Source: an uncultured Eubacteriales bacterium (GTDB taxonomy: Bacteria; Bacillota; Clostridia; Christensenellales; UBA1242). From it: a DNA stretch of 61,871 bases. The DNA is taken from the NCBI GenBank assembly GCA_949096025.1, contig CARXKP010000003.1, positions 1 through 61,871 on the forward strand, in the 5' to 3' direction. Positions 1 to 35,436 of this stretch are shown piece by piece. The notes under the pieces were generated by a model. It saw nothing but the letters and a program-made list of their open reading frames with translations, was not told where the DNA came from and made no database searches. The position numbers were made by a program, and so were the translations under genes. How positions within the stretch are numbered: the stretch's first letter is position 1; each line of letters opens with the position of its first letter.

Positions 1-1870
1 CTTCAACATTTCCATTATATTTTACATAGTATTTGTTATTTCGCCAGATTGCATAAAGTCTTTGCTCATCATCCTCATTTGATAATGTAAAGTTTGCACC
101 ATTTCCGTGTGTCACCTTTGCTTGTTGCGTTGCTAAATCATAATGATCACTTATATTACTTGTATCTAATATTAATGTTTGTTGCCAGTGCCAACCTACA
201 AAACTATATCCTGTTCGATAATATGTATTTAATGTTAGTGCTGTTGGCTGTCCATAAAAATACTTATTTCCTTCTGTTGTCATCGTTCCTAAACCACCAT
301 TTGGTAAATATACCATATTTGATGACTTTGGACTCCATTGAGCGGTAAGTGTAGGAGAACCATACTTGCCTTTTAAAGAAACTCCATCTGAATGTGTCGA
401 ATTATTTAACCACGAACCACTTGATGATGTTACTTTCCAGCCAGTAAAATTATATCCATATCTATGTGGTTTTGGCAATTCGGTTGTTGATGTTATATTA
501 TAACTTATATTTGATAAAGCATCTCCACCATTAGTCATTAAAGTTATTGTATAGGTATTTATTGTCCAATACGCATAAAGTGTTGTATTATTATTTGCTA
601 TATTCCAACTTCTAGCACTTGTTCCATTTGAATTATAATACTTTGTTCCTGAACCTCCAGTGCTTGAATAATATCCATTAAATGTATAGCCTGTTCTTGA
701 CGGAACTGAAATCGAAGGCATTGACGAATCATATGTTGCTGTCACACTACCATCTCCACCGCTTCCACTTTGCCTATCAAGTGTTACTGTATACTCATTT
801 GCCGTCCAATAAGCATAAAGTGTTTTATCTGAGGCATTATCCCAAGCTCTTGCACTTGTTCCATTTGAATTATAATATTTTGTTCCTGAACCGCCAGTAC
901 TAGAATAATATCCTTGAAAAGTATAACCGGCTCTTGATGGAACTGAGATTGTTGGCATTGACGAATTATAAGTTGCTGTAACTGAGCCATCTCCGCCACT
1001 ACCACTTTGTCTATCAAGTGTTACAGTATATTTTAAAGGCTCCCATACCGCATATAAATTTATTGTTCTTGCAGTGTCACCAGTTGTATCTTTAAAATTA
1101 TCACCACTTGCATAACTAGCATTAGTAGCAGAAGAACTTCTACTCCAACCTTTAAATTTATATCCTGAACGCGTTGGTGTAGAACTAGGAATAGTTACAC
1201 CACCAAGACCAGAATAAAAATTTATACTTGAAGGAGCATTACTCCCTCCATTTGCATTAAAAGCAAGATTATAGTACCATCTATAGATAACATAGCAATT
1301 ACCATACATTGTTTTTTCAGCAGCACCCTTTGGAGGCGAAGATGTCGAAGGGGCATTACTAGCCCATTTATAATAAGTGGTATTACCACTTAATGGAGAG
1401 CCTGCTGCATCAGATGAATCATACACTCCGTGACATCTCCACCAAGAAGGATAATAATTGGTAATATTAATTCTTCCGTGACGACGGACATAATGCAAAC
1501 CGCCATTAGAGTAATGATAATAAAATGTTGAGATGTTATTTAATTTTATTACATTATTCCCACTACGACTTGTACCATTATAGTATAATGTTGCATCAAA
1601 AGGCATACGATCACCATCACCAGTTTTTTCATCCTCATACCAAGAAACATCAAATAAACTACTTCCAACAATTGATGTGGATGTATAATCAGCAATAGAA
1701 CTAGTCCCCTCTCTATAAGCAACTGTTTTTACAATAAAATTAAAGTTAGTGGACGCTTCTGTTTTATCTTTTTTAGAAAAAGGATTGACAAGTAGAATTA
1801 TACCGCCAGTTAGCACAAGCAAGGCAACAATAATAAAAAAACTTTTTGTAATCAAAGAAAACTTTTTCAT
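1..1870 (-). CDS. Cell-surface protein, N-terminal 623 codons only (C-terminus beyond left window edge); signal/anchor helix followed by Listeria-Bacteroides type (Flg_new / InlB B-repeat-like) repeats
   Basis: Absent from the ORF track because it has no stop in the window. Hand translation of the reverse strand starts at ATG 1870-1868, with SD GGAGGGTGAT directly upstream. It gives MKKFSLITKSFFIIVALLVLTGG... and stays open to base 2 (...RLYAIWRNNKYYVKYNGNVE). Repeated modules Y-T-[VI]-T-L-D...G-Y-x-F-x-G-[WY]...LYA-x-W are the Flg_new signature. Confidence 0.8.
   Translation of the reverse strand, partial: MKKFSLITKSFFIIVALLVLTGGIILLVNPFSKKDKTEASTNFNFIVKTVAYREGTSSIADYTSTSIVGSSLFDVSWYEDEKTGDGDRMPFDATLYYNGTSRSGNNVIKLNNISTFYYHYSNGGLHYVRRHGRINITNYYPSWWRCHGVYDSSDAAGSPLSGNTTYYKWASNAPSTSSPPKGAAEKTMYGNCYVIYRWYYNLAFNANGGSNAPSSINFYSGLGGVTIPSSTPTRSGYKFKGWSRSSSATNASYASGDNFKDTTGDTARTINLYAVWEPLKYTVTLDRQSGSGGDGSVTATYNSSMPTISVPSRAGYTFQGYYSSTGGSGTKYYNSNGTSARAWDNASDKTLYAYWTANEYTVTLDRQSGSGGDGSVTATYDSSMPSISVPSRTGYTFNGYYSSTGGSGTKYYNSNGTSARSWNIANNNTTLYAYWTINTYTITLMTNGGDALSNISYNITSTTELPKPHRYGYNFTGWKVTSSSGSWLNNSTHSDGVSLKGKYGSPTLTAQWSPKSSNMVYLPNGGLGTMTTEGNKYFYGQPTALTLNTYYRTGYSFVGWHWQQTLILDTSNISDHYDLATQQAKVTHGNGANFTLSNEDDEQRLYAIWRNNKYYVKYNGNVE
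557..1030 (-). repeat. Two tandem 237-nt (79-codon) coding repeats inside the surface-protein gene
   Basis: The units are 794..1030 and 557..793. They encode YTVTLDRQSGSGGDGSVTATYNSSMPTISVPSRAGYTFQGYYSSTGGSGTKYYNSNGTSARAW... and YTVTLDRQSGSGGDGSVTATYDSSMPSISVPSRTGYTFNGYYSSTGGSGTKYYNSNGTSARSW... The offset between identical landmarks is exactly 237 nt. Confidence 0.65.
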
Positions 1871-1948
1871 ATCACCCTCCTTATTTATGTTTTATTTACT
1901 ACTATTGTTTCATCCTTTTATATTAGTATATTATTATTCTATACATCT

Positions 1949-1978
1949 ATTCTACCCCCCCCCACCAAATTTTGTCAA
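1949..1978 (-). promoter_or_regulatory. Sigma-A type promoter of the left-edge surface-protein gene with a G9 tract in the spacer
   Basis: On the minus strand the sequence reads TTGACA (1978-1973), aaatttggt, GGGGGGGGG (1963-1955), TAGAAT (1954-1949). The spacer is 18 nt. The promoter lies about 80 nt upstream of the ATG at 1870. Confidence 0.6.
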
Positions 1979-2021: not shown

Positions 2022-2048
2022 TACAAAAAAAAAGACGGATTGCGTCTT
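2022..2048 (-). terminator. Rho-independent terminator after recO
   Basis: On the minus strand: AAGACG-caatc-CGTCTT followed by a T8 run. The stem overlaps the recO stop codon. Confidence 0.6.
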
Positions 2049-2751
2049 AAATCATATTGCAACTGTAACCCGTCCTAAATTGATAGTTTTTATTTAATAA
2101 ATTAAATGCCTGAATTTCTCCCATACCGCCTAGTTTTACGGTTGATAATTTTTCATAATCAGTTTTATCTAGAAGACGCATTGCACTAAAGCAAGCATCT
2201 GATATTTTTTCACAAAGAGAATTATGACAAGCAGGACAAACAATCTCTCCCACCTCATAATTCATATATTTAATTTCTAAGTTACTTCCACACGATGAGC
2301 ATTTATCATTTAAAAACCCATACCCCATCGCATTGAAAACTGAAAGCAAAAACTTATCAATAACATAATACTTTTTAGGGTTATCATAACAAAGAGTTTT
2401 TAAGGATTTTATAACCTCAACAAAAAGTTGTGGGTTGCTTTCGGTGGCAATCTTTGACACAATATCAAGTATTGCACAGCCCTCATAATATCTCTCAATA
2501 TTCTTTGAGATTTCATAGAAATTGTCAATAATATCTACAGCTGTTACGATATTCGTTTTGCCCTCTTCAACAATGAAATCTCCAAAACAAAAGATTTCCT
2601 TTGCTGATTTGAGTTTAGCCTTATCGCCTCTCACACCTCTCATTGTGACAGTCATTTTTCCTTTTTCAAGAGTAAAAAGGTTAATAAGCATATCTTTTTC
2701 TTTGAGTTTGGTGTTGCCTATAACAATCGCTTTAACTTTAGTAGAAGCCAT
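2047..2751 (-). CDS. recO: DNA repair protein RecO
   Basis: 234 aa. N-terminal OB-fold-like region (KAIVIGNTKLKEKDMLINLFT...) and C-terminal zinc motif CSSCGS...CPAC. The yqzL-recO synteny matches Bacillus. Confidence 0.85.
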   Translation of the reverse strand: MASTKVKAIVIGNTKLKEKDMLINLFTLEKGKMTVTMRGVRGDKAKLKSAKEIFCFGDFIVEEGKTNIVTAVDIIDNFYEISKNIERYYEGCAILDIVSKIATESNPQLFVEVIKSLKTLCYDNPKKYYVIDKFLLSVFNAMGYGFLNDKCSSCGSNLEIKYMNYEVGEIVCPACHNSLCEKISDACFSAMRLLDKTDYEKLSTVKLGGMGEIQAFNLLNKNYQFRTGYSCNMI

Positions 2752-3231: not shown

Positions 3232-3362
3232 ATTTTTCTCCTAGCACTAGACCCTCTATTACATTATATAAAAAAAAGTATAATAATGTAAAAAACAATT
3301 GATTTTTTGTTAAAGTTATTATAAAATAAAAACCGAAACAAATTTAATTAAAAGGAGAAAAT

Positions 3363-4001
3363 ATGAAAAAGTTTTTTAAGGATTTTAAAGCTTTTATCAG
3401 CAGAGGAAATATTCTTGATATGGCTGTCGGTGTAATTATTGGTAGCGCTTTCAGCGCTATCGTTACAGCACTTACTAATAAAATTATTATGCCACTTATC
3501 AATGCTCTTCTTGCAGGTGCTGGCGGTGGACTCGATTCTGCTTACACAATCTTAAGACCTGCTTATGTCATTGAAAATGGTGTTACTACCGATGTTTTAG
3601 ACCTTGCAAACAGTATTTATATTGATTGGGGTGCTTTCATAACAGCAGTCATAAATTTCCTTCTTATTGCTCTTGTGCTTTTTATAATGCTTAAAGTTGC
3701 TATGAAAAGTTCTTCACTTTTTAAAGAAACACGAAAGAAGATTAGTGACAACACACTTAATCACGCTGAAAGAAAAGAACTTAAAGCACACGGCATAAAT
3801 ATTAAAGACAAAGAAGCAGTAAAACAATACTTTGCTGACAAGCAAGCCGAAGAAGAAAGAGCCAAAGCTGAAGAAGAAGCTAAAGCACAAGCCGAAGCAG
3901 AAGAAAAGATGAAAAACTCAACAGAATATCTCTTAAAAGAAATAAGAGATTTGCTTCTTGAAAATGCAGAACTCAAAAAAAATCAAAAAAGCGAACAATA
4001 A
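3363..4001 (+). CDS. mscL: Large-conductance mechanosensitive channel MscL, with unusually long charged C-terminal extension
   Basis: N-terminus KDFKAFISRGNILDMAVGVIIGSAFSAIVTALTNKIIMPLI is the canonical MscL TM1 region. SD is AAAGGAGAAAAT. 212 aa, with a tail containing AEEERAKAEEEAKAQAEAEE. Confidence 0.9.
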   Translation: MKKFFKDFKAFISRGNILDMAVGVIIGSAFSAIVTALTNKIIMPLINALLAGAGGGLDSAYTILRPAYVIENGVTTDVLDLANSIYIDWGAFITAVINFLLIALVLFIMLKVAMKSSSLFKETRKKISDNTLNHAERKELKAHGINIKDKEAVKQYFADKQAEEERAKAEEEAKAQAEAEEKMKNSTEYLLKEIRDLLLENAELKKNQKSEQ

Positions 4002-4101: not shown

Positions 4102-4761
4102 CTAACTTTTATTCTTTAATGAACGCCTATACAGATAATCAAATAATAAAAACAACGCTCCAATAATAGCCCAAACAACTATTATACAAACTCCAGCAGT
4201 TTTATTAATAATTACCCTACCTTCGGAATCAATAATACTCCAATCGTTCTGCTTAATTCCTAGATAAGTAATAAGTAAAACAGATAATACTGCCGAACAA
4301 ACACCAAATATCCATTTAAAAATTTTTAACACATTTCGATTCCACAATAATTTATAGTGCACATTTTCAGGCATTGATTTTTTCATTTTATTTTCAGTCA
4401 ATAATTTATGCCCCAACTTTTGCTTCTGCAAAGCTACCTGTTTCGATTTATATGCACAAGCGAGAGGATCTTTTCCTTCCATTATACTTGCATAAAAACT
4501 CTCGACAAAATCAATATCTGATTGCTTACAAAATTCTGATTCTATAGATACATCGTGAGCAAGTTGATTACGCATCCAACGCACGTGTTTTAATTCCTTA
4601 TATACAATATCCCAATCATTTATTACACTTCGTTCTACATAAGGCGTATTCTCCATATCTTTAATATAGGAGGATACTCCTTCATTTGACGAATAAATCT
4701 CTCTACAGAGCTTATCAAGTTTTTTATATTGTTCTTGAAATTCAATATTTTTTTCCTGCAT
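4102..4761 (-). CDS. Hypothetical membrane-anchored protein (219 aa): helical N-terminal domain with HEPN-like RNxxAH motif and two C-terminal TM helices
   Basis: Track ORF 4102..4926 was trimmed because its first 55 codons read through the tRNA. ATG at 4761 is preceded by GGGAGAAG. MQEKNIEFQEQYKKLDKLCREIY...KELKHVRWMRNQLAHDVS... The C-terminus has hydrophobic segments WIFGVCSAVLSVLLITYLGI and GVCIIVVWAIIGALFLLFDYL. Confidence 0.65.
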   Translation of the reverse strand: MQEKNIEFQEQYKKLDKLCREIYSSNEGVSSYIKDMENTPYVERSVINDWDIVYKELKHVRWMRNQLAHDVSIESEFCKQSDIDFVESFYASIMEGKDPLACAYKSKQVALQKQKLGHKLLTENKMKKSMPENVHYKLLWNRNVLKIFKWIFGVCSAVLSVLLITYLGIKQNDWSIIDSEGRVIINKTAGVCIIVVWAIIGALFLLFDYLYRRSLKNKS

Positions 4762-4829
4762 TAAATCTTCTCCCAATATAAAATAAAAATACCCCATAAA
4801 ACAAAAAATGTTTTCCTGAGGTATATCCT

Positions 4830-4905
4830 TGGTGGAAGTTATAGGGCTCGAACCTATGACCCTCTGCTTGTAAGGCAGATGCTCTCCCAGCTGAGCTAAA
4901 CTTCC
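4830..4905 (-). tRNA. tRNA-Val (anticodon TAC), CCA encoded
   Basis: The reverse strand reads GGAAGTTTAGCTCAGCTGGGAGAGCATCTGCCTTACAAGCAGAGGGTCATAGGTTCGAGCCCTATAACTTCCACCA. It folds as a clean cloverleaf with acceptor GGAAGTT/AACTTCC, anticodon stem TCTGC/GCAGA, loop CTTACAA and T-loop TTCGAGC. Confidence 0.95.
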
Positions 4906-4916
4906 ATTGCTCTTTA

Positions 4917-4945
4917 ATAATATCAAATTTATTTTTTTTTGTCAA
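4917..4945 (-). promoter_or_regulatory. Sigma-A type promoter of tRNA-Val
   Basis: On the minus strand: TTGACA (4945-4940), 17-nt spacer, TATTAT (4922-4917). The tRNA 5' end lies about 12 nt downstream. Confidence 0.55.
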
Positions 4946-6262: not shown

Positions 6263-8812
6263 TTAAGGTTTCTTGTATGTGCTTCCACCTGAATTTTCTG
6301 TAGCTCTCTTAATTTCCTTAGTATCTGAAACCAATTGTTTAAGTAACGCATTAGTTTCTTTCTGAAGATTTTGTTCAGCTTGAGAGTTGGCAACATCAGT
6401 AGCGTGATGTTCTCTACGCATTGCATCACCTTCAGACTTACGATCAAGAGAAGTGCCTTTCATAGTCATAGCAGGTCCTAATGAATCTTTTATGCCACCT
6501 AGAACCTTATCAAGTCCAAACGCACCGCCCATTTCTTTCATAGACTTAACGAATGCATCAGACATAGATTTACCTGCTTTCTTAGCATCAAATGTAACAT
6601 CAAGTGCTTTACCAGTTAATTTAACACCTTTCCATAAACCATTACTAATTGCAGAGATTTTATCTTTTGCTGAATCTTTTATTGACCTATTTTCCTTAGA
6701 ATACTCACCATTAGATCCTTTCTTATAGTGTAATTCACCTTTTTCCATTTTTTCTTTAACATTTTCAGCACGTTTATAAACTTTAGCAATTTCTTCTTTG
6801 CCACTATCACTATCATAGTTGACATTTTTCTTGCCTGTAATTCTTTCATACTCTGTTCTATTTCTAGTTTGTTCTTGCTCTAGGCTATCCATCATACTAT
6901 GTCCAGATCCAGCAGCAACCTTTTTGCCAGAAACATCTCTTTCAGAAAGTTCTTTTTCAATTGCTTTTTTGACGTCATCTTCACTACCGCCTGCACTTCT
7001 TACTTTTAATGCCGCAGTAGCAGCAGCCTTTTCAGCTCCCTCAAGACCTTTAATTCCTTCGGTAGACTTAGAGGCTTCCAACAATGAATTTACCTTATCT
7101 GCTTTTACATTGACATTTCCTGCTTTTTCAGCAATATCAAGAGCCTTTCTATCACCTTCTGCCCGAGCTCGTTTAGCGATTGCTTTACCACCTGCTTTAA
7201 TAGCACCACCTGTAAGTCTAGCCGCACCAACAGCCACTCTAGCAGTTCCGCCGGCCATAGCTGTCATAGTAGAGAAGCCTTTTTTAACAGTGGATTGAAC
7301 TTCACTCTTAAGACCATTACCGATAGAGTTAGCATCAGCACCACCAACAAATCCAGAAACAATAGCAATAAAGTCTTTCATCATAAGGATGCCGACAATT
7401 AGGATAATCATATTAACTATAGAGTTAATCATACCGAAAATTGTACCTGGACCAAACCATTGAATCGTCTGAACATAAGGTAGTATTAACATTATAATAT
7501 TCATACCGAGTATCGCACCGTAAGCCATAAGAACTTGTTGCATAAATTGTGTGCCCCAACTCTTAAATGCTTTAAAGTTATCTAGGGGTCCGAGTGAAAT
7601 AAGTGGAGGATAAATAATGAACAATGCAGCACCTTTTATAAGTCTAGACATAAGACCAAGGATAACTGACAGCATTACACCAACCATTGTAACACCACCA
7701 CCGAAGGCTACTATGAATTGGAATTGCCATAAGTCATAATGTAACCATACTGCAGTTAGGTTGTATTTTGAGAAAGAACTCATCGTGTTAATAGCCCCAG
7801 TAAAATCTGTCCCTCTTATATATCTAACATTTGGATACCAACTTTTAACTTCATTAATAGATTTAGAAACCTTTAATTTTATATTATTCATAAAAGCAAA
7901 ATCAATTTGATCTGCTATATAATTTTTTCTTTCTTCATCACTTTTACAATTACGGAAATCATTACAATCGTTACTTCCAAAAATTTGACTGCTTTGTGCA
8001 TTCCCTATTGTAATATTCTCTGTACGCACTCGATTTGCAGAAAATGCTGCCGCTTTGAACAACATACCACCCATTGTAGAGGTTGTTGTTGGAGAATAAG
8101 CTCCAAAGAAGTCATAATATGTATAGCAAAGCTTGCTAGTTGGGTCATCCTTAACAAGATAAGTTCCTTCAAATTTATCAGTAACAACAGTATTTCCATA
8201 CATTGCTTTAACTTTTTCCGCGTCAGTTCCAGCAGTAATTTGGTCAAGAATATTAAGTATAAAACTTGAAAGGTTAAGACCAATAACAACCATAACAGGC
8301 ATAATGAAGTAAGTAAGAATACCTTTAATAGCGGCATAAATATATTTCCAAGGATTAGTAGTTTGATAATCTTCGTTATAGTGAGATTTAATCATAGCTA
8401 TCATTGTAGCAAGTACTAACAATATTAACGCAAAGATTGATAACGATATGAAAACGGTATGTAATGCTCTATAAACAGAAGCTCTATCACCAATACCTAA
8501 TATTCCATAAATAAATTCTGAAAGAGGATCTCTACCAAAAATCTGAGTAAACTTTGTTCCTCCACCGCTAGCGGAACCACTTATCTGAACTCCATCAACA
8601 ATTGTTCCACCTTCAGAAGGTCCTGCCGATTCTAATCCAGACACCCAGTAGGAATCTAAACCGGCAAGTTTTCTCATTAGACATTGAAGAGCATCAATTC
8701 CACTTGCGAATGCCGCAAAGAAGAAATAAATAATTCGTGGAATATTATCAAGGATGGATAAGAACCAATCTTTGATACCATCAAACAATCCCAATAACAT
8801 CGATGTATTCAT
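6263..8812 (-). CDS. Large polytopic membrane protein (849 aa) with about 330-aa Gly/Ala/Lys/Glu-rich cytoplasmic tail; function unknown (TcpH/TrbL/VirB6-like architecture only)
   Basis: SD is AAAGGAGGGGATTT-ATG. There are many hydrophobic helices, e.g. IIYFFFAAFASGI, SLSIFALILLVLATMIAMI, GILTYFIMPVMVVIGLNL, FIVAFGGGVTMVGVMLSVILGL, AYGAILGMNIIMLILPYV and MIILIVGILMM. The low-complexity tail follows from about residue 515. The gene is monocistronic, with its own TGgTATAAT promoter and terminator. Confidence 0.8.
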   Translation of the reverse strand: MNTSMLLGLFDGIKDWFLSILDNIPRIIYFFFAAFASGIDALQCLMRKLAGLDSYWVSGLESAGPSEGGTIVDGVQISGSASGGGTKFTQIFGRDPLSEFIYGILGIGDRASVYRALHTVFISLSIFALILLVLATMIAMIKSHYNEDYQTTNPWKYIYAAIKGILTYFIMPVMVVIGLNLSSFILNILDQITAGTDAEKVKAMYGNTVVTDKFEGTYLVKDDPTSKLCYTYYDFFGAYSPTTTSTMGGMLFKAAAFSANRVRTENITIGNAQSSQIFGSNDCNDFRNCKSDEERKNYIADQIDFAFMNNIKLKVSKSINEVKSWYPNVRYIRGTDFTGAINTMSSFSKYNLTAVWLHYDLWQFQFIVAFGGGVTMVGVMLSVILGLMSRLIKGAALFIIYPPLISLGPLDNFKAFKSWGTQFMQQVLMAYGAILGMNIIMLILPYVQTIQWFGPGTIFGMINSIVNMIILIVGILMMKDFIAIVSGFVGGADANSIGNGLKSEVQSTVKKGFSTMTAMAGGTARVAVGAARLTGGAIKAGGKAIAKRARAEGDRKALDIAEKAGNVNVKADKVNSLLEASKSTEGIKGLEGAEKAAATAALKVRSAGGSEDDVKKAIEKELSERDVSGKKVAAGSGHSMMDSLEQEQTRNRTEYERITGKKNVNYDSDSGKEEIAKVYKRAENVKEKMEKGELHYKKGSNGEYSKENRSIKDSAKDKISAISNGLWKGVKLTGKALDVTFDAKKAGKSMSDAFVKSMKEMGGAFGLDKVLGGIKDSLGPAMTMKGTSLDRKSEGDAMRREHHATDVANSQAEQNLQKETNALLKQLVSDTKEIKRATENSGGSTYKKP

Positions 8813-30057: not shown

Positions 30058-33000
30058 TTAATCCCTTTTATTGTAATCACTGCCAAGAGTAAAAGGTTCA
30101 TTATCAAGTATAAGTCCGCCTATCCAAGTAAGTCCATTTGGAAGAGGTTTTCCATTATACATTGTCCAATTTGAAAAATCCGCTCCTCCTTCATAATAAT
30201 ACTTATTTCCACCTGCAATATAAATAGTACTTATAACCTTGCTTACAGAATTATATAGAGAAATATCGGAATTACATTCAGCATAACAATCAGTGATAGT
30301 TGTAGTACTACCAGAACCTAATAAAATTTTACCATTTGTTATCGAACCGATAAAAGCACTATTTTTTATGCTTGATGCTAAACTGCTATACCCCATAATT
30401 CCTGCAATCAACGTTCCGTCAGCGCCATTATTTCCAACAATATTACATTGAGATATACAATCTGTTATAGTTGATGCAACATCGTCTGCTCCACCAATTA
30501 TGCCTCCAACATTTTCTCTGCCTGTGATGTTGCCGTGATTATAACATTTATTTACTGTAACACCATCACCTTGTCCAATCATTCCACACGATTGGTCGCC
30601 TATTACATTTACATAACTTACGCAGTTTTCAATAAGTCCAGTACTTGCAAATCCTACAAGTCCACCTATACGTTTGTATCCTGTCACGCTTCCAGTTGAA
30701 AGATTGACATTTTTTATAGTCGCTCCAACGGTATAACCAAATAAACCTACATTATTAAATAACTGCCTTCCACTTGCATTTATCTGAGAGTAAAATTTTA
30801 TTCCTGAGATTGAGTACCTTTGTCCGTCATAAACTCCTCTAAATGCCTTTTGTCGATCTCCTTCTGGGTTTGTTTCTATAGTATTTCCTCCGATTGGTAA
30901 CCAGTAATGTGCCGATAAATTTATATGCGCGGTTTGTTTATAAAAAGCATTTGTATAGTGTCCATTTACATTTTCTTCTTGAACCTTTAATGAAAGGAAT
31001 GCTAAATCTCCAGCAGTTGCAATTATGTATGGATTCGACTCAGTTCCTTCTCCAGCTAAACTGATTGAAGCATAGTCAGCCCAAGTTGTCTGCCATTGAG
31101 CTGTTAATATAATATCTTCAGCATATCTCGATGACGGAACCGTTCCTCCATCTTTATATGTATAACCATTCTTATTATCTGTCCAATACATAAATATCTT
31201 GCCAGGTCTTATAAATGTACAGGAAGGAAGTGTAACAGAATTTGGAAAAGTATATTCAATTTCACTCATCGAACCGCCATTTCCACCATTATTGTCAAAG
31301 TTAATCTTATACTTGTTAGCTTCCCACTTAGCATACAAGATTGTAACAGTTGTTTCCTTCCAAACTTGAGCACCTTTTGCTATATTCTCCCTTGCTTCTT
31401 TGCCGTTATAATACTGTTTCCCATTACCATTTGTTTGAGTGAAATATCCTCTAAATGTATAGCCTCTTCTTGTTGGTGGTGTAATATTAGGAGGCATTGC
31501 ATCATAAGCTATGTCTACACTCGTTGTTCCTGCAGTTGTAGCAGATTGATTATCAAGTGTAACCTTGTAAGTATTTGGTGTCCAAATAGCAGAAAATACT
31601 TTCTTAGAACTATCATCTCCGAGATATGAAACTGTCATACTTAACTTTCCGTTTGTTGCTACATACGTTGTTCCATTATGTTCCCAACCAACTAATGTAT
31701 AACCTGTTCTTGTTGCAACAGGGAATTCAAATATCGAACCCACTTCAATACCGTTTTGTTGACCTAAGGGACCTTCGCCACCATTATAGTTAAATTCAAA
31801 ATCATATTTCAATCCTGCAAGCATATATAAATTTAAATGTAATGCTGGACGAACGGCAGCTGAAGATGACACTGTTAATGAAGAAACATAATCTCCTTTT
31901 ACCGACAAATTACGAGTAGAGATAAAATCTGTATTGCTTGCAGAACGTATCATTGAACTATTATACAAAATATTATCAGTATTAGAGGTTCCAACTTTAG
32001 CAGATATGCTACTTGTCGAACCATTAAAGTTTGCTCTTTGGTTATTGTTTAAACCCCATAAACCAGCATTTCCATCATATCCCACCTCATAACGACTAGG
32101 AAGCCAAAGTTTATCATATTTCCAAATATCATTATTCGATTTATGTGCATAGTTATATAAACTTGAATAAAAGCCGTCGTCACTTACACCTGTAGACCAG
32201 TTTTCATTTGAACAATTATAATTAGTACCAGTACCTTTTGAATTTTGTCCGCTTTCTTGCCAAGACACTTGTTCTGGAGTGACTATATATTTAGTTACAT
32301 TACCAGCAACAGAATCATTTGTAAAAATTGCAAATGGGCTTGATATTTTATTCCCTCCCGAAGTAGCATTTGTTCCATCACTTGTATAGTATCCATTTTG
32401 ACTATTTAATGTTACATATCGCACATAACTTTTTCCATACATATTTGAAGGACCACTTAATGTCGCATCTGAACTTAACCAATTTGCTGACCAATCTGAA
32501 TATAATCCTCCATTGTAGAATCCGTGATATTGACCCAAACTATCATTTCTTCCTAACCAAGCCTCTTGATAATTATTATCAAGCCAAAGAGTAAGTATTG
32601 GTTGACCTAGTTTATCTGTTGAAAGATACATCACCTGCCAATCAAGTCCACCAAATCTTACAATAATGTCTTGACCGCTTGATTTTAATGTTGTACCAGT
32701 TCTCATATCGGCTGAAGTTCTTATACTTGTTGCTTGAGAAACAAGCGTTGTTAAATTTGTTGTTGATGACGAACTATTATCAGTCACCATTTGTAAAAGT
32801 CTATTTGCATTCGTTGTCTTTATTTCACTTCCTGTCCATATTTCATCTACTTTAGCAGCATTTTTGTTGACAAGATTAATGGTATTCGCCGCCGCTTCTT
32901 TTAAATTTAAGTGCAATGCGGGACGAACGGCAGCTGAAGATGACACTGTTAATGAAGAAACATAATCTCCTTTTACCGACAAATTACGAGTAGAGATAAA

Positions 33001-34080
33001 ATCTGTATTGCTTGCAGAACGTATCATTGAACTATTATACAAAATATTATCAGTATTAGAGGTTCCAACTTTAGCAGATATGCTACTTGTCGAACCATTA
33101 AAGTTTGCTCTTTGGTTATTGTTTAAACCCCATAAACCAGCATTTCCATCATATCCCACCTCATAACGACTAGGAAGCCAAAGTTTATCATATTTCCAAA
33201 TATCATTATTCGATTTATGTGCATAGTTATATAAACTTGAATAAAAGCCGTCGTCACTTACACCTGTAGACCAGTTTTCATTTGAACAATTATAATTAGT
33301 ACCAGTACCTTTTGAATTTTGTCCGCTTTCTTGCCAAGACACTTGTTCTGGAGTGACTATATATTGGGTCACATTTTCTGCGACTCTACTCATAGTAAAT
33401 TTTGCGAAAGGACTTGATGAAGTTTGAGATGCACTTGCAGAAGAAGTTCCTGTTGAATAATTAAACCACATTGAATTTGCATTATTCAAAGTAACCATCT
33501 TTACATAACTTCTTCCATACATATTGGAAGGATATAAACCTGACACACTAGTGCTTGACCAATTTGCAGAAAAATCTGAATATAATCCTCCATTGTAGAA
33601 TCCGTGATATTGACCCAAACTATCATTTCTTCCCGCCCAAGCTTTTTGATAGTTGTTTGTAAGCCATAAGGTTAAAATTGGATTGCCTGACTTATCTGTT
33701 GAAAGGTACACAACTTCCCAGTCAAGCCCAGCAAATCTGACAACTATATCTTTGCCACTTGTCTTTCCTGTCGTTCCGCTACGCATCGCCTCTGCCGTTC
33801 GCTTGCTTGATGCTAGTGAGTTTATCATTGACATATTTGTGCTTGAAACCGAACTATTATTTGCAACCATTCGCAAGAGTTGATTAAAGTTTAAGCCATC
33901 AAAAGCACTGCCATTCCAGATTTCGTCCACTTTTACAAAGCTTAATGTATCGATATTTGTTATGGCATTAGTGGAAGTTCTTTTTATTAGACCAAACATA
34001 TCAAGGCCAAGCAATAAACTTGACATAGCAAAAAGGATGCAACAGATTATTACAGATATTTTTCTTATTAATTTCATCAT
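30058..34080 (-). CDS. Large secreted/surface protein (1340 aa): signal peptide, two tandem about 358-aa modules ending in a DUF6273-like ...VRPALHLNL segment, three Listeria-Bacteroides (Flg_new) repeats, C-terminal GLUG-motif repeats
   Basis: SD is GAGGGAGGTGA-ATG. The signal sequence is MMKLIRKISVIICCILFAMSSLLLG. Flg_new modules include TRTGYTLVGW, RRGYTFRGYF and YKINFDNNGGNG. GLUG-like segments include GLFGYTVGATIKN, IGGLVGFASTGLIENC and VGGIIGG. Domain names are from motif memory. Confidence 0.85.
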   Translation of the reverse strand: MMKLIRKISVIICCILFAMSSLLLGLDMFGLIKRTSTNAITNIDTLSFVKVDEIWNGSAFDGLNFNQLLRMVANNSSVSSTNMSMINSLASSKRTAEAMRSGTTGKTSGKDIVVRFAGLDWEVVYLSTDKSGNPILTLWLTNNYQKAWAGRNDSLGQYHGFYNGGLYSDFSANWSSTSVSGLYPSNMYGRSYVKMVTLNNANSMWFNYSTGTSSASASQTSSSPFAKFTMSRVAENVTQYIVTPEQVSWQESGQNSKGTGTNYNCSNENWSTGVSDDGFYSSLYNYAHKSNNDIWKYDKLWLPSRYEVGYDGNAGLWGLNNNQRANFNGSTSSISAKVGTSNTDNILYNSSMIRSASNTDFISTRNLSVKGDYVSSLTVSSSAAVRPALHLNLKEAAANTINLVNKNAAKVDEIWTGSEIKTTNANRLLQMVTDNSSSSTTNLTTLVSQATSIRTSADMRTGTTLKSSGQDIIVRFGGLDWQVMYLSTDKLGQPILTLWLDNNYQEAWLGRNDSLGQYHGFYNGGLYSDWSANWLSSDATLSGPSNMYGKSYVRYVTLNSQNGYYTSDGTNATSGGNKISSPFAIFTNDSVAGNVTKYIVTPEQVSWQESGQNSKGTGTNYNCSNENWSTGVSDDGFYSSLYNYAHKSNNDIWKYDKLWLPSRYEVGYDGNAGLWGLNNNQRANFNGSTSSISAKVGTSNTDNILYNSSMIRSASNTDFISTRNLSVKGDYVSSLTVSSSAAVRPALHLNLYMLAGLKYDFEFNYNGGEGPLGQQNGIEVGSIFEFPVATRTGYTLVGWEHNGTTYVATNGKLSMTVSYLGDDSSKKVFSAIWTPNTYKVTLDNQSATTAGTTSVDIAYDAMPPNITPPTRRGYTFRGYFTQTNGNGKQYYNGKEARENIAKGAQVWKETTVTILYAKWEANKYKINFDNNGGNGGSMSEIEYTFPNSVTLPSCTFIRPGKIFMYWTDNKNGYTYKDGGTVPSSRYAEDIILTAQWQTTWADYASISLAGEGTESNPYIIATAGDLAFLSLKVQEENVNGHYTNAFYKQTAHINLSAHYWLPIGGNTIETNPEGDRQKAFRGVYDGQRYSISGIKFYSQINASGRQLFNNVGLFGYTVGATIKNVNLSTGSVTGYKRIGGLVGFASTGLIENCVSYVNVIGDQSCGMIGQGDGVTVNKCYNHGNITGRENVGGIIGGADDVASTITDCISQCNIVGNNGADGTLIAGIMGYSSLASSIKNSAFIGSITNGKILLGSGSTTTITDCYAECNSDISLYNSVSKVISTIYIAGGNKYYYEGGADFSNWTMYNGKPLPNGLTWIGGLILDNEPFTLGSDYNKRD
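31847..32291 (-). repeat. Copy 1 of a 445-bp perfect direct repeat (coding)
   Basis: Checked line by line and found identical to 32921..33365. The offset is 1074 nt, which is 358 codons. It encodes YIVTPEQVSWQESGQNSKGTGTNYNCSNENW...SSAAVRPA. Confidence 0.85.
32921..33365 (-). repeat. Copy 2 of the 445-bp perfect direct repeat (coding)
   Basis: See 31847..32291. The flanks diverge sharply at both ends. Confidence 0.85.
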
Positions 34081-34303
34081 TCACCTCCCTCAAGCCTTAC
34101 GCTTGGCGACTATCGTATATTAATTTACATACTCTAAATACTTAGCATTCCCCAAACCTTACACTTAGCGAGCAAGTAAATGTTGCACGACTGTCGTTAA
34201 GTTCGCTATAAACGCTATAAATTAGTTTGTTTATTTTAGGTTTTTTTATTAAAATATATAGCCTGTCACCTCCGCCTAAATTACACTATATATTTATACC
34301 TTA

Positions 34304-34333
34304 ATTTTACCCCCCCCCACGACTTTTTGTCAA
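34304..34333 (-). promoter_or_regulatory. Sigma-A type promoter of the 1340-aa surface-protein gene with a G9 tract in the spacer
   Basis: On the minus strand: TTGACA (34333-34328), aaaagtcgt, GGGGGGGGG (34318-34310), TAAAAT (34309-34304). The spacer is 18 nt. Confidence 0.6.
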
Positions 34334-34387
34334 ATATTTACAATAAATAATTAATTATTTAATAAAAAAACATACTTTTATAAAAAA

Positions 34388-34407
34388 TAAACGCATATTT
34401 GCGTTTA
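34388..34407 (-). terminator. Terminator after kdgK
   Basis: TAAACGCA-tat-TGCGTTTA overlaps the kdgK stop and is followed on the minus strand by TTTTTTAT. Confidence 0.55.
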
Positions 34408-35436
34408 TCTTTGTATCCTCCCCGAAGTATCACCGCCCATAAGAGCAAAAACTTCATCTTCATTTACGAGGTTATAATCTCCAGTAATGGTATGTTTTAA
34501 TGCACTTGCTGCGATAGCAAATTCAAGTGCTTTTTGTTTATCATTTGGATACTTTAAGAATGAATGTATCATCGCTCCGCAAAAGGAGTCACCTCCTCCG
34601 ACCCTATCTACAATAGGATTAATATCATATTCCTTAGTAAGCAAAATTTCATTTTTATCAGCATCGTACATAGATGCCCTAAGACCATTGTGAGAAGCAC
34701 TATAAGATGTTCTTGTAGTCGAGAAAATATATTTAAAATCATATTCTTTCGCGATTTGCTTTAACACCATTTTTTCTCTTTCAAGAGGAGTTTTCCCTTT
34801 AAATTGACTTTCATCAATTTTAAAACCTAGACTTTGGACTGCGGTATTTTCATTTCCGAAAAACACATCAACATATTGCATAAGAGGCTTTAATACCTTA
34901 ATCGCTTTTTCTTCTGACCAAAGTTTTTTTCTATAATTAATTTCACAAGATACAAGAACATTGTGTTTTTTAGCAGAAATAAGCGCCTGACGCATTACCT
35001 CTGCTGCTTTATCACTAATTGCTGTTGTTATTCCTATCCAATGAAACCAATCTGTGCCTTCAAAAATTTTATCAAAATCAAAGTCCTCGACATCTGCTTC
35101 TGCCATAGCAGAGCCTGCTCTATCATAAATAACTTTACTTGCACGCATTGATGCACCAATTTCAAGATAATATATTCCAAGTCTATCTCCACCGCGAGCA
35201 ACAAAATCGGTATTCACTCCATATTTTCTAAGTTCATTTATAGCACATTGTCCTATTTCGTGTGCTGGTACTTTTGATACATAAACTGCCTCATCACCAT
35301 AATTGGCAAGCGAAATTGCAACATTTGCTTCACTTCCTCCATAAAGAGAATCAAAACCACTTGCCTGAACAAATCTTTGATTGCCTGAAGTTGACAATCT
35401 CAACATAATTTCGCCCATTGTTACAATTTTTGCCAT
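34405..35436 (-). CDS. kdgK: 2-dehydro-3-deoxygluconokinase (PfkB family)
   Basis: MAKIVTMGEIMLRLS..., GGSEANVA, C-terminal GGGDSFCGA. Confidence 0.85.
   Translation of the reverse strand: MAKIVTMGEIMLRLSTSGNQRFVQASGFDSLYGGSEANVAISLANYGDEAVYVSKVPAHEIGQCAINELRKYGVNTDFVARGGDRLGIYYLEIGASMRASKVIYDRAGSAMAEADVEDFDFDKIFEGTDWFHWIGITTAISDKAAEVMRQALISAKKHNVLVSCEINYRKKLWSEEKAIKVLKPLMQYVDVFFGNENTAVQSLGFKIDESQFKGKTPLEREKMVLKQIAKEYDFKYIFSTTRTSYSASHNGLRASMYDADKNEILLTKEYDINPIVDRVGGGDSFCGAMIHSFLKYPNDKQKALEFAIAASALKHTITGDYNLVNEDEVFALMGGDTSGRIQR

Follow-up and report, generated by a model that had tools for sequence, protein, structure and literature searches.

Two genes for large surface proteins, carried by a 62-kb stretch of DNA from an uncultured Eubacteriales bacterium, are each preceded by a promoter whose spacer ends in a run of nine Gs. 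This raises the question of whether the runs act as slippage-type switches of surface-protein expression, or are instead fixed promoter elements, bystanders of some other switch, or products of chance or error. Slippage-type promoter switches are known from pathogens and are barely documented in gut Clostridia, where, to our knowledge, phase variation is known almost only from invertible promoters. In one recent review the only switches mentioned for Clostridia are of the inversion type (PMC11868660), and a literature search found no paper linking proteins with Listeria-Bacteroides (Flg_new) repeats to homopolymer switches. We refer below to the whole stretch analysed, 61,871 nt in length, as the window.

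Two promoters and the genes they precede

The features of the two loci are as follows.

Locus 1
1..1870, minus strand: 5' part (623 codons) of the surface-protein gene, which continues beyond the window
1871..1948, minus strand: predicted 5' leader of ~70 nt, with a predicted transcription start and the ribosome binding site GGAGGG at 1880-1875
1949..1954, minus strand: -10 hexamer TAGAAT
1955..1963, minus strand: G9 homopolymer adjoining the -10; G7, G9 or G10 across assemblies of the species
1964..1972, minus strand: fixed 9-nt part of the spacer, AAATTTGGT, the same in 16 assemblies
1973..1978, minus strand: -35 hexamer TTGACA
2023..2048, minus strand: intrinsic terminator of recO, a hairpin and a T9 run; T8 or T9 between lineages
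2047..2751, minus strand: recO, the upstream gene and an anchor for fetching orthologous loci

Locus 2
30058..34080, minus strand: surface-protein gene, 1340 aa
34081..34303, minus strand: 5' leader of ~215 nt, containing the palindrome ACGACAGTCGT
34304..34309, minus strand: -10 hexamer TAAAAT
34310..34318, minus strand: G9 homopolymer adjoining the -10; G8, G9 or G10 in other assemblies
34319..34327, minus strand: fixed 9-nt part of the spacer, AAAAGTCGT; AAAAGCCGT in one lineage
34328..34333, minus strand: -35 hexamer TTGACA
34383..34412, minus strand: terminator hairpin of the upstream PfkB-family sugar kinase gene (34405-35436)

On the minus strand the promoters read TTGACA-AAATTTGGT-GGGGGGGGG-TAGAAT at locus 1 (1978..1949) and TTGACA-AAAAGTCGT-GGGGGGGGG-TAAAAT at locus 2 (34333..34304), where GGGGGGGGG is the G9 tract. 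Direct reading confirms the claim of the initial annotation that both loci share one TTGACA-N9-G9-TAnAAT design, with nine fixed nucleotides followed by a G9 that touches the -10 hexamer in an 18-nt spacer. The distance from the end of the locus-1 -10 to the ATG at 1870, first put at about 80 nt, measures 78 nt, and the G tract ends 84 nt upstream of the start codon at locus 1 and 229 nt upstream of it at locus 2. A consensus scan scores both promoters at 11/12 and finds each to be the sole strong sigma-A-type site in its own intergenic region. The other near-consensus promoters within the window have spacers of 16-17 nt, so that by this measure each G9 promoter carries exactly one G in excess.

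The window has a GC content of 32%, and its only runs of six or more G or C over 62 kb are one C6, at 55281, and the two G9 tracts; at seven or more, the G9 tracts stand alone. A search for G8 or longer gives four overlapping matches, all of them from the two tracts, compared with 0.13 expected, and none of 100 shuffles reaches four. The full promoter pattern occurs twice, compared with 0.00 per shuffle in 100 shuffles.

Both genes are predicted to encode surface proteins, with an N-terminal signal or anchor and Flg_new repeats (PF09479) that score above the gathering cut-off of 27 bits. The locus-1 protein has a basic-hydrophobic signal/anchor, a unique N-terminal domain and repeats detected at E = 1.3e-31 (108.9 bits for the partial protein, 148.6 bits for the full-length allele of assembly L001); full-length alleles in other assemblies (L007 and L001) have 1056-1070 aa. 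The locus-2 protein combines a signal/anchor with two tandem DUF6273-like modules, Flg_new repeats (E = 3.2e-13, 50 bits) and a GLUG-like C-terminal domain that is common to both proteins. Their C-terminal ~580 aa are 34% identical (E = 6e-71), so the two are old, distant paralogues with different N-terminal domains. Neighbouring genes for SpoIIP, SpoIIR, SipL, YpeB and Spo0A_C place the host among endospore-forming, Clostridia-like Bacillota known from metagenomes only.

This paralogy bears on how the shared promoter design arose. In an alignment of the two promoter regions, similarity outside the hexamers, the G run and a few adjacent bases is that expected of AT-rich DNA, in keeping with the original proposal that the design is shared and is not a duplicated segment. 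The second half of that proposal needs softening, however, because the genes are paralogous and an ancient common origin of gene and promoter together is possible. The design would have been either acquired twice, or reduced to functional elements that alone outlasted the divergence, and either origin implies constraint on the tract.

The recO terminator is predicted to insulate the locus-1 promoter from upstream transcription. In one assembly (L136 3690-3740, ERZ28621934; window ~2015-2050) a 32-nt deletion removes this terminator and extends RecO to 239 aa, and there transcription reading through from recO could drive the surface gene whatever the length of the G tract.

Several further observations concern the coding regions. 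The 3' part of the locus-1 gene (window 1-600; from ~1300 nt into the gene in L001/L007) is highly divergent and mosaic between strains, unlike the promoter and the 5' part of the gene, which are nearly identical. The locus-2 gene contains an internal tandem duplication of ~1074-1080 nt (window 31828-33853), one 300-nt stretch of which is 99% identical, and its alleles of 983 aa (L154, L159) and 1339-1342 aa fit one and two DUF6273-like modules, respectively. Elsewhere in the window, a tRNA gene (4833-4905, minus strand) overlaps the 5' end of a listed 274-aa open reading frame at 4102-4926, where the real gene encodes a 219-aa DUF6548 protein, as called in related contigs. An 849-aa protein (6263-8812, minus strand; 847-857 aa across strains) has no Pfam match and no signal peptide.

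Tract length among strains of the species

Orthologous loci were fetched by exact matches to RecO, the PfkB kinase and near-identical cluster variants, and a scan of metagenome contigs with a pattern specific for both loci contributed one extra locus (L134, G9). Sixteen independent assemblies, including the window, cover the locus-1 tract, with G7 in two, G9 in twelve and G10 in two; the locus-2 tract, covered by 24 assemblies, is G8 in two, G9 in 21 and G10 in one. G9 is thus the consensus in 33 of the 40 assemblies, these lengths being assembly consensus in which G9 runs at 4-14x coverage could hold some error. Length heterogeneity, which the initial annotation had predicted, is therefore found between assemblies at both loci (7/9/10 and 8/9/10), and because the tract is present in 40 independent assemblies it is not the assembly artefact that had been allowed for.

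The non-modal alleles lie close to G9 strains, differing from one by 0-5 SNPs over 2-3.7 kb. The G10 allele of L157 shows no difference from the G9 allele of L155 in 2825 nt, and the two G8 alleles (L012 and L013) are 2-3 SNPs from the window in ~3.5 kb, compared with a mean of 13 SNP/kb over all pairs. The two lineages with G10 at locus 1 are 232 SNPs apart, so that G10 arose there twice, separately. Replicate samples of the same strain agree on the non-modal allele (L001 and L007, G7; L012 and L013, G8), which argues against random assembly error.

Homopolymers of A or T in the same alignments served as controls. All 59 A/T6 runs and all 18 A/T7 runs keep their length over ~890 observations, and two of six A/T8-9 runs vary, each with a single allele restricted to one lineage. 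The two biallelic runs are an A8/A7 run at 3270-3277, 93 nt upstream of mscL, and the T9/T8 run at 2025-2033 in the tail of the recO terminator.

The remainder of each promoter is constant. The hexamers and the nine fixed nucleotides are the same in all assemblies, bar one lineage-specific SNP at locus 2 and a possible lesion of the -10 in L147 (~3610-3640, Logan DRR865656; window 34304-34318). There the locus-2 -10 reads G9-AAAAT and lacks the T of TAAAAT, the result of a mutation that weakens the promoter or of faulty assembly.

Where one assembly contains both loci, the (locus 1, locus 2) states are (9,9) in three cases, (9,8), (7,9) and, in two cases, (10,9). The tracts thus change independently, as first proposed. 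G9 meanwhile remains unbroken and the commonest length even where the flanks have diverged by as much as 46-73 SNP/kb. Rapid change together with lasting retention is what a contingency tract would be expected to show. The independent appearance of G10 on two occasions and the persistence of G9 across deep divergence are, at the level of assembly consensus, compatible with changes back and forth.

By analogy with characterized systems, we think it probable that each G9 is a hypermutable homopolymer in the spacer of a strong sigma-A-type promoter, and that the two genes are subject to phase variation, or 'volume control', at the level of transcription, as porA and tp0126 are. Slipped-strand mispairing at replication would add or remove Gs, setting the distance between -35 and -10 at 16 nt with G7, 17 nt with G8, 18 nt with G9 and 19 nt with G10, and changing their rotational register as well. 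Both effects would alter promoter strength, in a manner that is heritable and probably reversible. Each promoter would serve one large Flg_new-repeat surface protein and be insulated by an upstream terminator, so that the two genes could be set independently. If the canonical 17 nt is optimal, promoter strength would peak at G8, fall to an intermediate level at G7 and G9 and be lowest at G10, leaving the prevailing G9 one step from maximal expression.

In this proposal high-rate slippage within the population, reversibility and the control of transcription by tract length are steps that we infer, the last of them from the spacers of 16-19 nt that the alleles would produce and the 16-17 nt of the other strong promoters in the window. 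What had been described as ON/OFF states may in fact be graded. The two loci do show defining features of phase variation of the porA, tp0126 or vlp type: a simple-sequence tract of about 7 nt or more between recognisable hexamers, length polymorphism between strains and a predicted surface product. Counting against a switch are the predominance of G9 and the fact that the tract is not wildly unstable. Spacers of 18 nt are often functional, and G9 may therefore simply be the working state.

The same design in other genomes and in phages

Species-representative genomes were scanned with the pattern TTGACA-N7-11-G(7 or more)-N0-4-TAnAAT, yielding at least 120 loci (L014-L133), with the window's own species not among them. 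Among the matches listed, the G run adjoins the -10 in 85 of 121 and its commonest length is G9; the sources are mostly gut metagenome-assembled genomes with some isolates, and the taxa include Clostridia, Lachnospiraceae, Christensenellaceae, Bacilli, Treponema, Saccharibacteria, Lentisphaerae, Sellimonas and Streptococcus rupicaprae. Starts resembling those of secreted proteins, lipoproteins or membrane-anchored proteins, called by a crude hydrophobicity rule, are found in 54 of 79 downstream open reading frames of at least 100 aa among these listed matches, compared with a background of 26% for all long open reading frames in the same loci (p ~2e-15). The Pfam families BspA-type LRR, DUF6273, Flg_new and Big_2 recur in the downstream proteins of the matches listed. 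Taken at face value, these listed matches suggest that the same design precedes secreted proteins in many commensal lineages.

Two of the loci have features of their own. A Lentisphaerae metagenome-assembled genome (L083) carries two tandem paralogous genes for secreted proteins, each with its own G10 or G9 promoter (3239-3268 and 7721-7750). The isolate Streptococcus rupicaprae DSM 28303 (L020 7100-7130) has a G12 before a protein whose N-terminus looks, by eye, like a YSIRK-type signal peptide.

One match belongs to a homologue of the locus-1 protein. In another species, represented by a mouse-gut metagenome-assembled genome (L046), the promoter TTGACA-ATAAATC-G9-TAAAAT again has G9, here within a 16-nt spacer, and the downstream gene encodes a protein homologous to that of locus 1, N-terminal domain included (4e-42). 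A search for homologues of the first 200 aa of the locus-1 protein gave one match only, too few for a family-wide comparison of promoters. The initial annotation had read the shared design as a sign of selection on the tract, and the retention of G9 across divergent strains, its presence before this homologue in another species and the enrichment of secreted products among the matches listed all support that reading.

The spacer lengths of the adjoining-type sites are uneven. Among the matches listed, 17 sites have 16 nt, 4 have 17 nt, 15 have 18 nt and 25 have 19 nt, a depletion of 17 nt relative to neighbouring lengths (p ~0.002), and G9 is the commonest run however long the remainder of the spacer. 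This mode among the listed matches, together with a G9 at 16-nt spacing in the mouse-gut species, is not expected if total spacing alone were selected. The depletion and the G9 mode could mean that populations are usually parked off the optimum; alternatively, G-rich spacers could have another optimum, or the run itself could be a recognised element.

The design also occurs in viral sequences. IMG/VR contains 81 distinct sites matching the G pattern, 30 of which adjoin the -10, compared with 10 sites and one adjoining when C replaces G. The design is thus strand-specific, on a comparison drawn from the adjoining class only, since the non-adjoining class is confounded by one phage promoter family. 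The members of that family read TTGACA-ACAGRACGA-G7-C-TATAAT-ATAGACAAGAGGTAAGG, with a 17-18-nt spacer, and occur several per contig in many related viral contigs (L163, L165, L171, L176, L179 and ~30 other IMG/VR loci). A 208-kb viral contig (IMGVR_UViG_3300015214_000001; L174, L211, L230 and L235) has 13 promoters of the form TTGACA-N7-10-G8-9-TAGAAT/TAAAAT before non-secreted proteins, which suggests a phage promoter class with the G run as a fixed feature. A G run beside the -10 is therefore not always a switch.

A broader interpretation, which we put forward tentatively and think rather unlikely, is that a run of about nine Gs adjoining the -10 on the non-template strand is a widespread, convergent promoter architecture of gut bacteria and some phages, in which the G run itself, and not the total spacer length alone, is maintained and 17-nt spacing is almost never found in reference genomes. 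It may extend through Clostridia, Lachnospiraceae, Bacilli, Treponema, Saccharibacteria and Lentisphaerae. If true, this would imply either a general rule by which commensal surface proteins are 'parked one or two steps from ON', or a G-tract promoter element, not described so far, that has a spacing optimum of its own.

The first alternative to a switch at the two loci is that the G run is a fixed promoter element, with the 18-nt G9 form as the working configuration and G7, G8 and G10 as incidental slippage mutants of little adaptive role. Such a run might stand in for an extended -10 (G at -14), form a rigid spacer needing supercoiling or an activator, or serve as a binding site for a factor. 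The modal G9 retained across deep strain divergence would be accounted for, as would the G9 of the mouse-gut homologue despite a spacer remainder 2 nt shorter, the constant mode of the run among the matches listed, the strand specificity in IMG/VR, and the use of G8-9 at promoters of non-surface genes in the 208-kb contig. We nonetheless consider a fixed element unlikely, because in the window the run is found on surface-protein genes only and the other strong promoters do without it, because length changes recur among near-identical strains far above the A/T controls, and because, among the matches listed, secreted-protein genes of other taxa are strongly over-represented behind the design, a bias typical of contingency loci. 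We also know of no sigma-A element that requires a run of nine Gs.

Other possible switches, and comparison with known systems

A second alternative is that the loci are switched by other means, by inversion of the promoter or by a regulator acting on the long leader, with the G run as a bystander. A 17-nt AT-rich inverted repeat (34237-34253 / 34358-34374) does bracket the locus-2 promoter, but the orientation of that promoter is the same in 24 of 24 assemblies, no recombinase domain is found among the annotated neighbours, and the locus-1 promoter has no flanking inverted repeat; an inverton was accordingly rejected. The long locus-2 leader with its palindrome, duplicated in some strains, could suggest a regulator, although an Rfam scan of the whole window found one tRNA only and no family in either leader, and the predicted fold of the locus-2 leader is no more stable than those of shuffled sequences (z = -0.79). 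A leader regulator could in any case coexist with a G-tract switch and need not replace it, and overall we regard this alternative as very improbable. The second copy of the palindrome ACGACAGTCGT, possibly an operator, lies in a 61-nt insertion just before the ribosome binding site in three assemblies (L156, L161 and L162). A frameshift switch within the coding region was also considered and set aside: the tracts are upstream of the genes, whose longest open reading frames start at 1870 and 34080.

That the tracts or their length differences reflect chance or technical error, through coincidental G runs or faulty sequencing and assembly of homopolymers, is hardly credible: homopolymers are error-prone, some contigs have a low coverage of 3.6-14x and the two long A/T runs likewise differ across assemblies, but shuffled sequences yield neither the G8-or-longer count nor the full pattern, the tract recurs in data from several studies and assemblers, replicates match, and none of the 77 A/T6-7 runs differs.

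Slippage in the promoter spacer remains the favoured reading. It appears that an uncultured gut spore-former, too, places large surface proteins under slippage-type promoter tracts. If this is confirmed, tract length in metagenomic reads would offer an easy way to tell which surface proteins a strain is making in a given host, and such tracts would need special care in the polishing of metagenome-assembled genomes and in strain tracking.

The architecture resembles that of porA in Neisseria meningitidis, where, in the account given by one source (PMC7864442), a poly-G tract between -35 and -10 sets transcription with an optimum at 17 nt. Common to both is a sigma-70-type promoter of a surface-protein gene with a G homopolymer in its spacer. 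The loci described here differ in that the host is a Gram-positive-type, endospore-forming gut commensal and not a proteobacterial pathogen, the products carry Flg_new repeats and are not porins, and the modal spacer is 18 nt; the effect on expression is proposed here by analogy.

Treponema pallidum offers further parallels. Its tp0126, encoding an OmpW homologue, has a poly-G between -35 and -10 for which 17-nt spacing is optimal, and its surface-antigen promoters more generally carry poly-G tracts of 7-11, with eight or fewer Gs permissive at tprE/G/J (PMC7864442). In vivo, tprL tracts range over 7-11 and G9 predominates (PMC7864442). The G9 majority in the tracts reported here is similar, whereas the tprL tract overlaps the -10 region and leaves hexamer spacing unchanged. 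The genomic settings also differ, since T. pallidum has 53% GC and many G tracts, compared with 32% GC and two tracts only in 62 kb here.

Among Firmicutes, the intergenic homopolymer between Spy1336/R28 and Spy1337 of Streptococcus pyogenes M28 is polymorphic in natural populations, and 1-nt indels in it alter transcript levels of a surface-protein gene (PMC7098570). It shares with the present loci a Firmicute host, an intergenic position and a surface-protein gene, but it is a poly-T between divergent genes that acts via a regulator gene, and is not described as a -35/-10 spacer. In a gut commensal, Bifidobacterium breve, slippage in a G tract switches a sortase-dependent pilus, and minority lengths were detected by error-corrected sequencing (PMC9187656). 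That tract is intragenic and its effect is a translational one, by frameshift, whereas the tracts described here lie in promoter spacers and would act on transcription.

The vlp system of Mycoplasma hyorhinis has several paralogous surface-protein genes, each with a poly-A of its own between -35 and -10, so that they go ON and OFF independently and in combination. Its products are lipoproteins of a wall-less organism and its tracts are poly-A, whereas the loci described here have poly-G tracts, and two members only within the 62-kb window.
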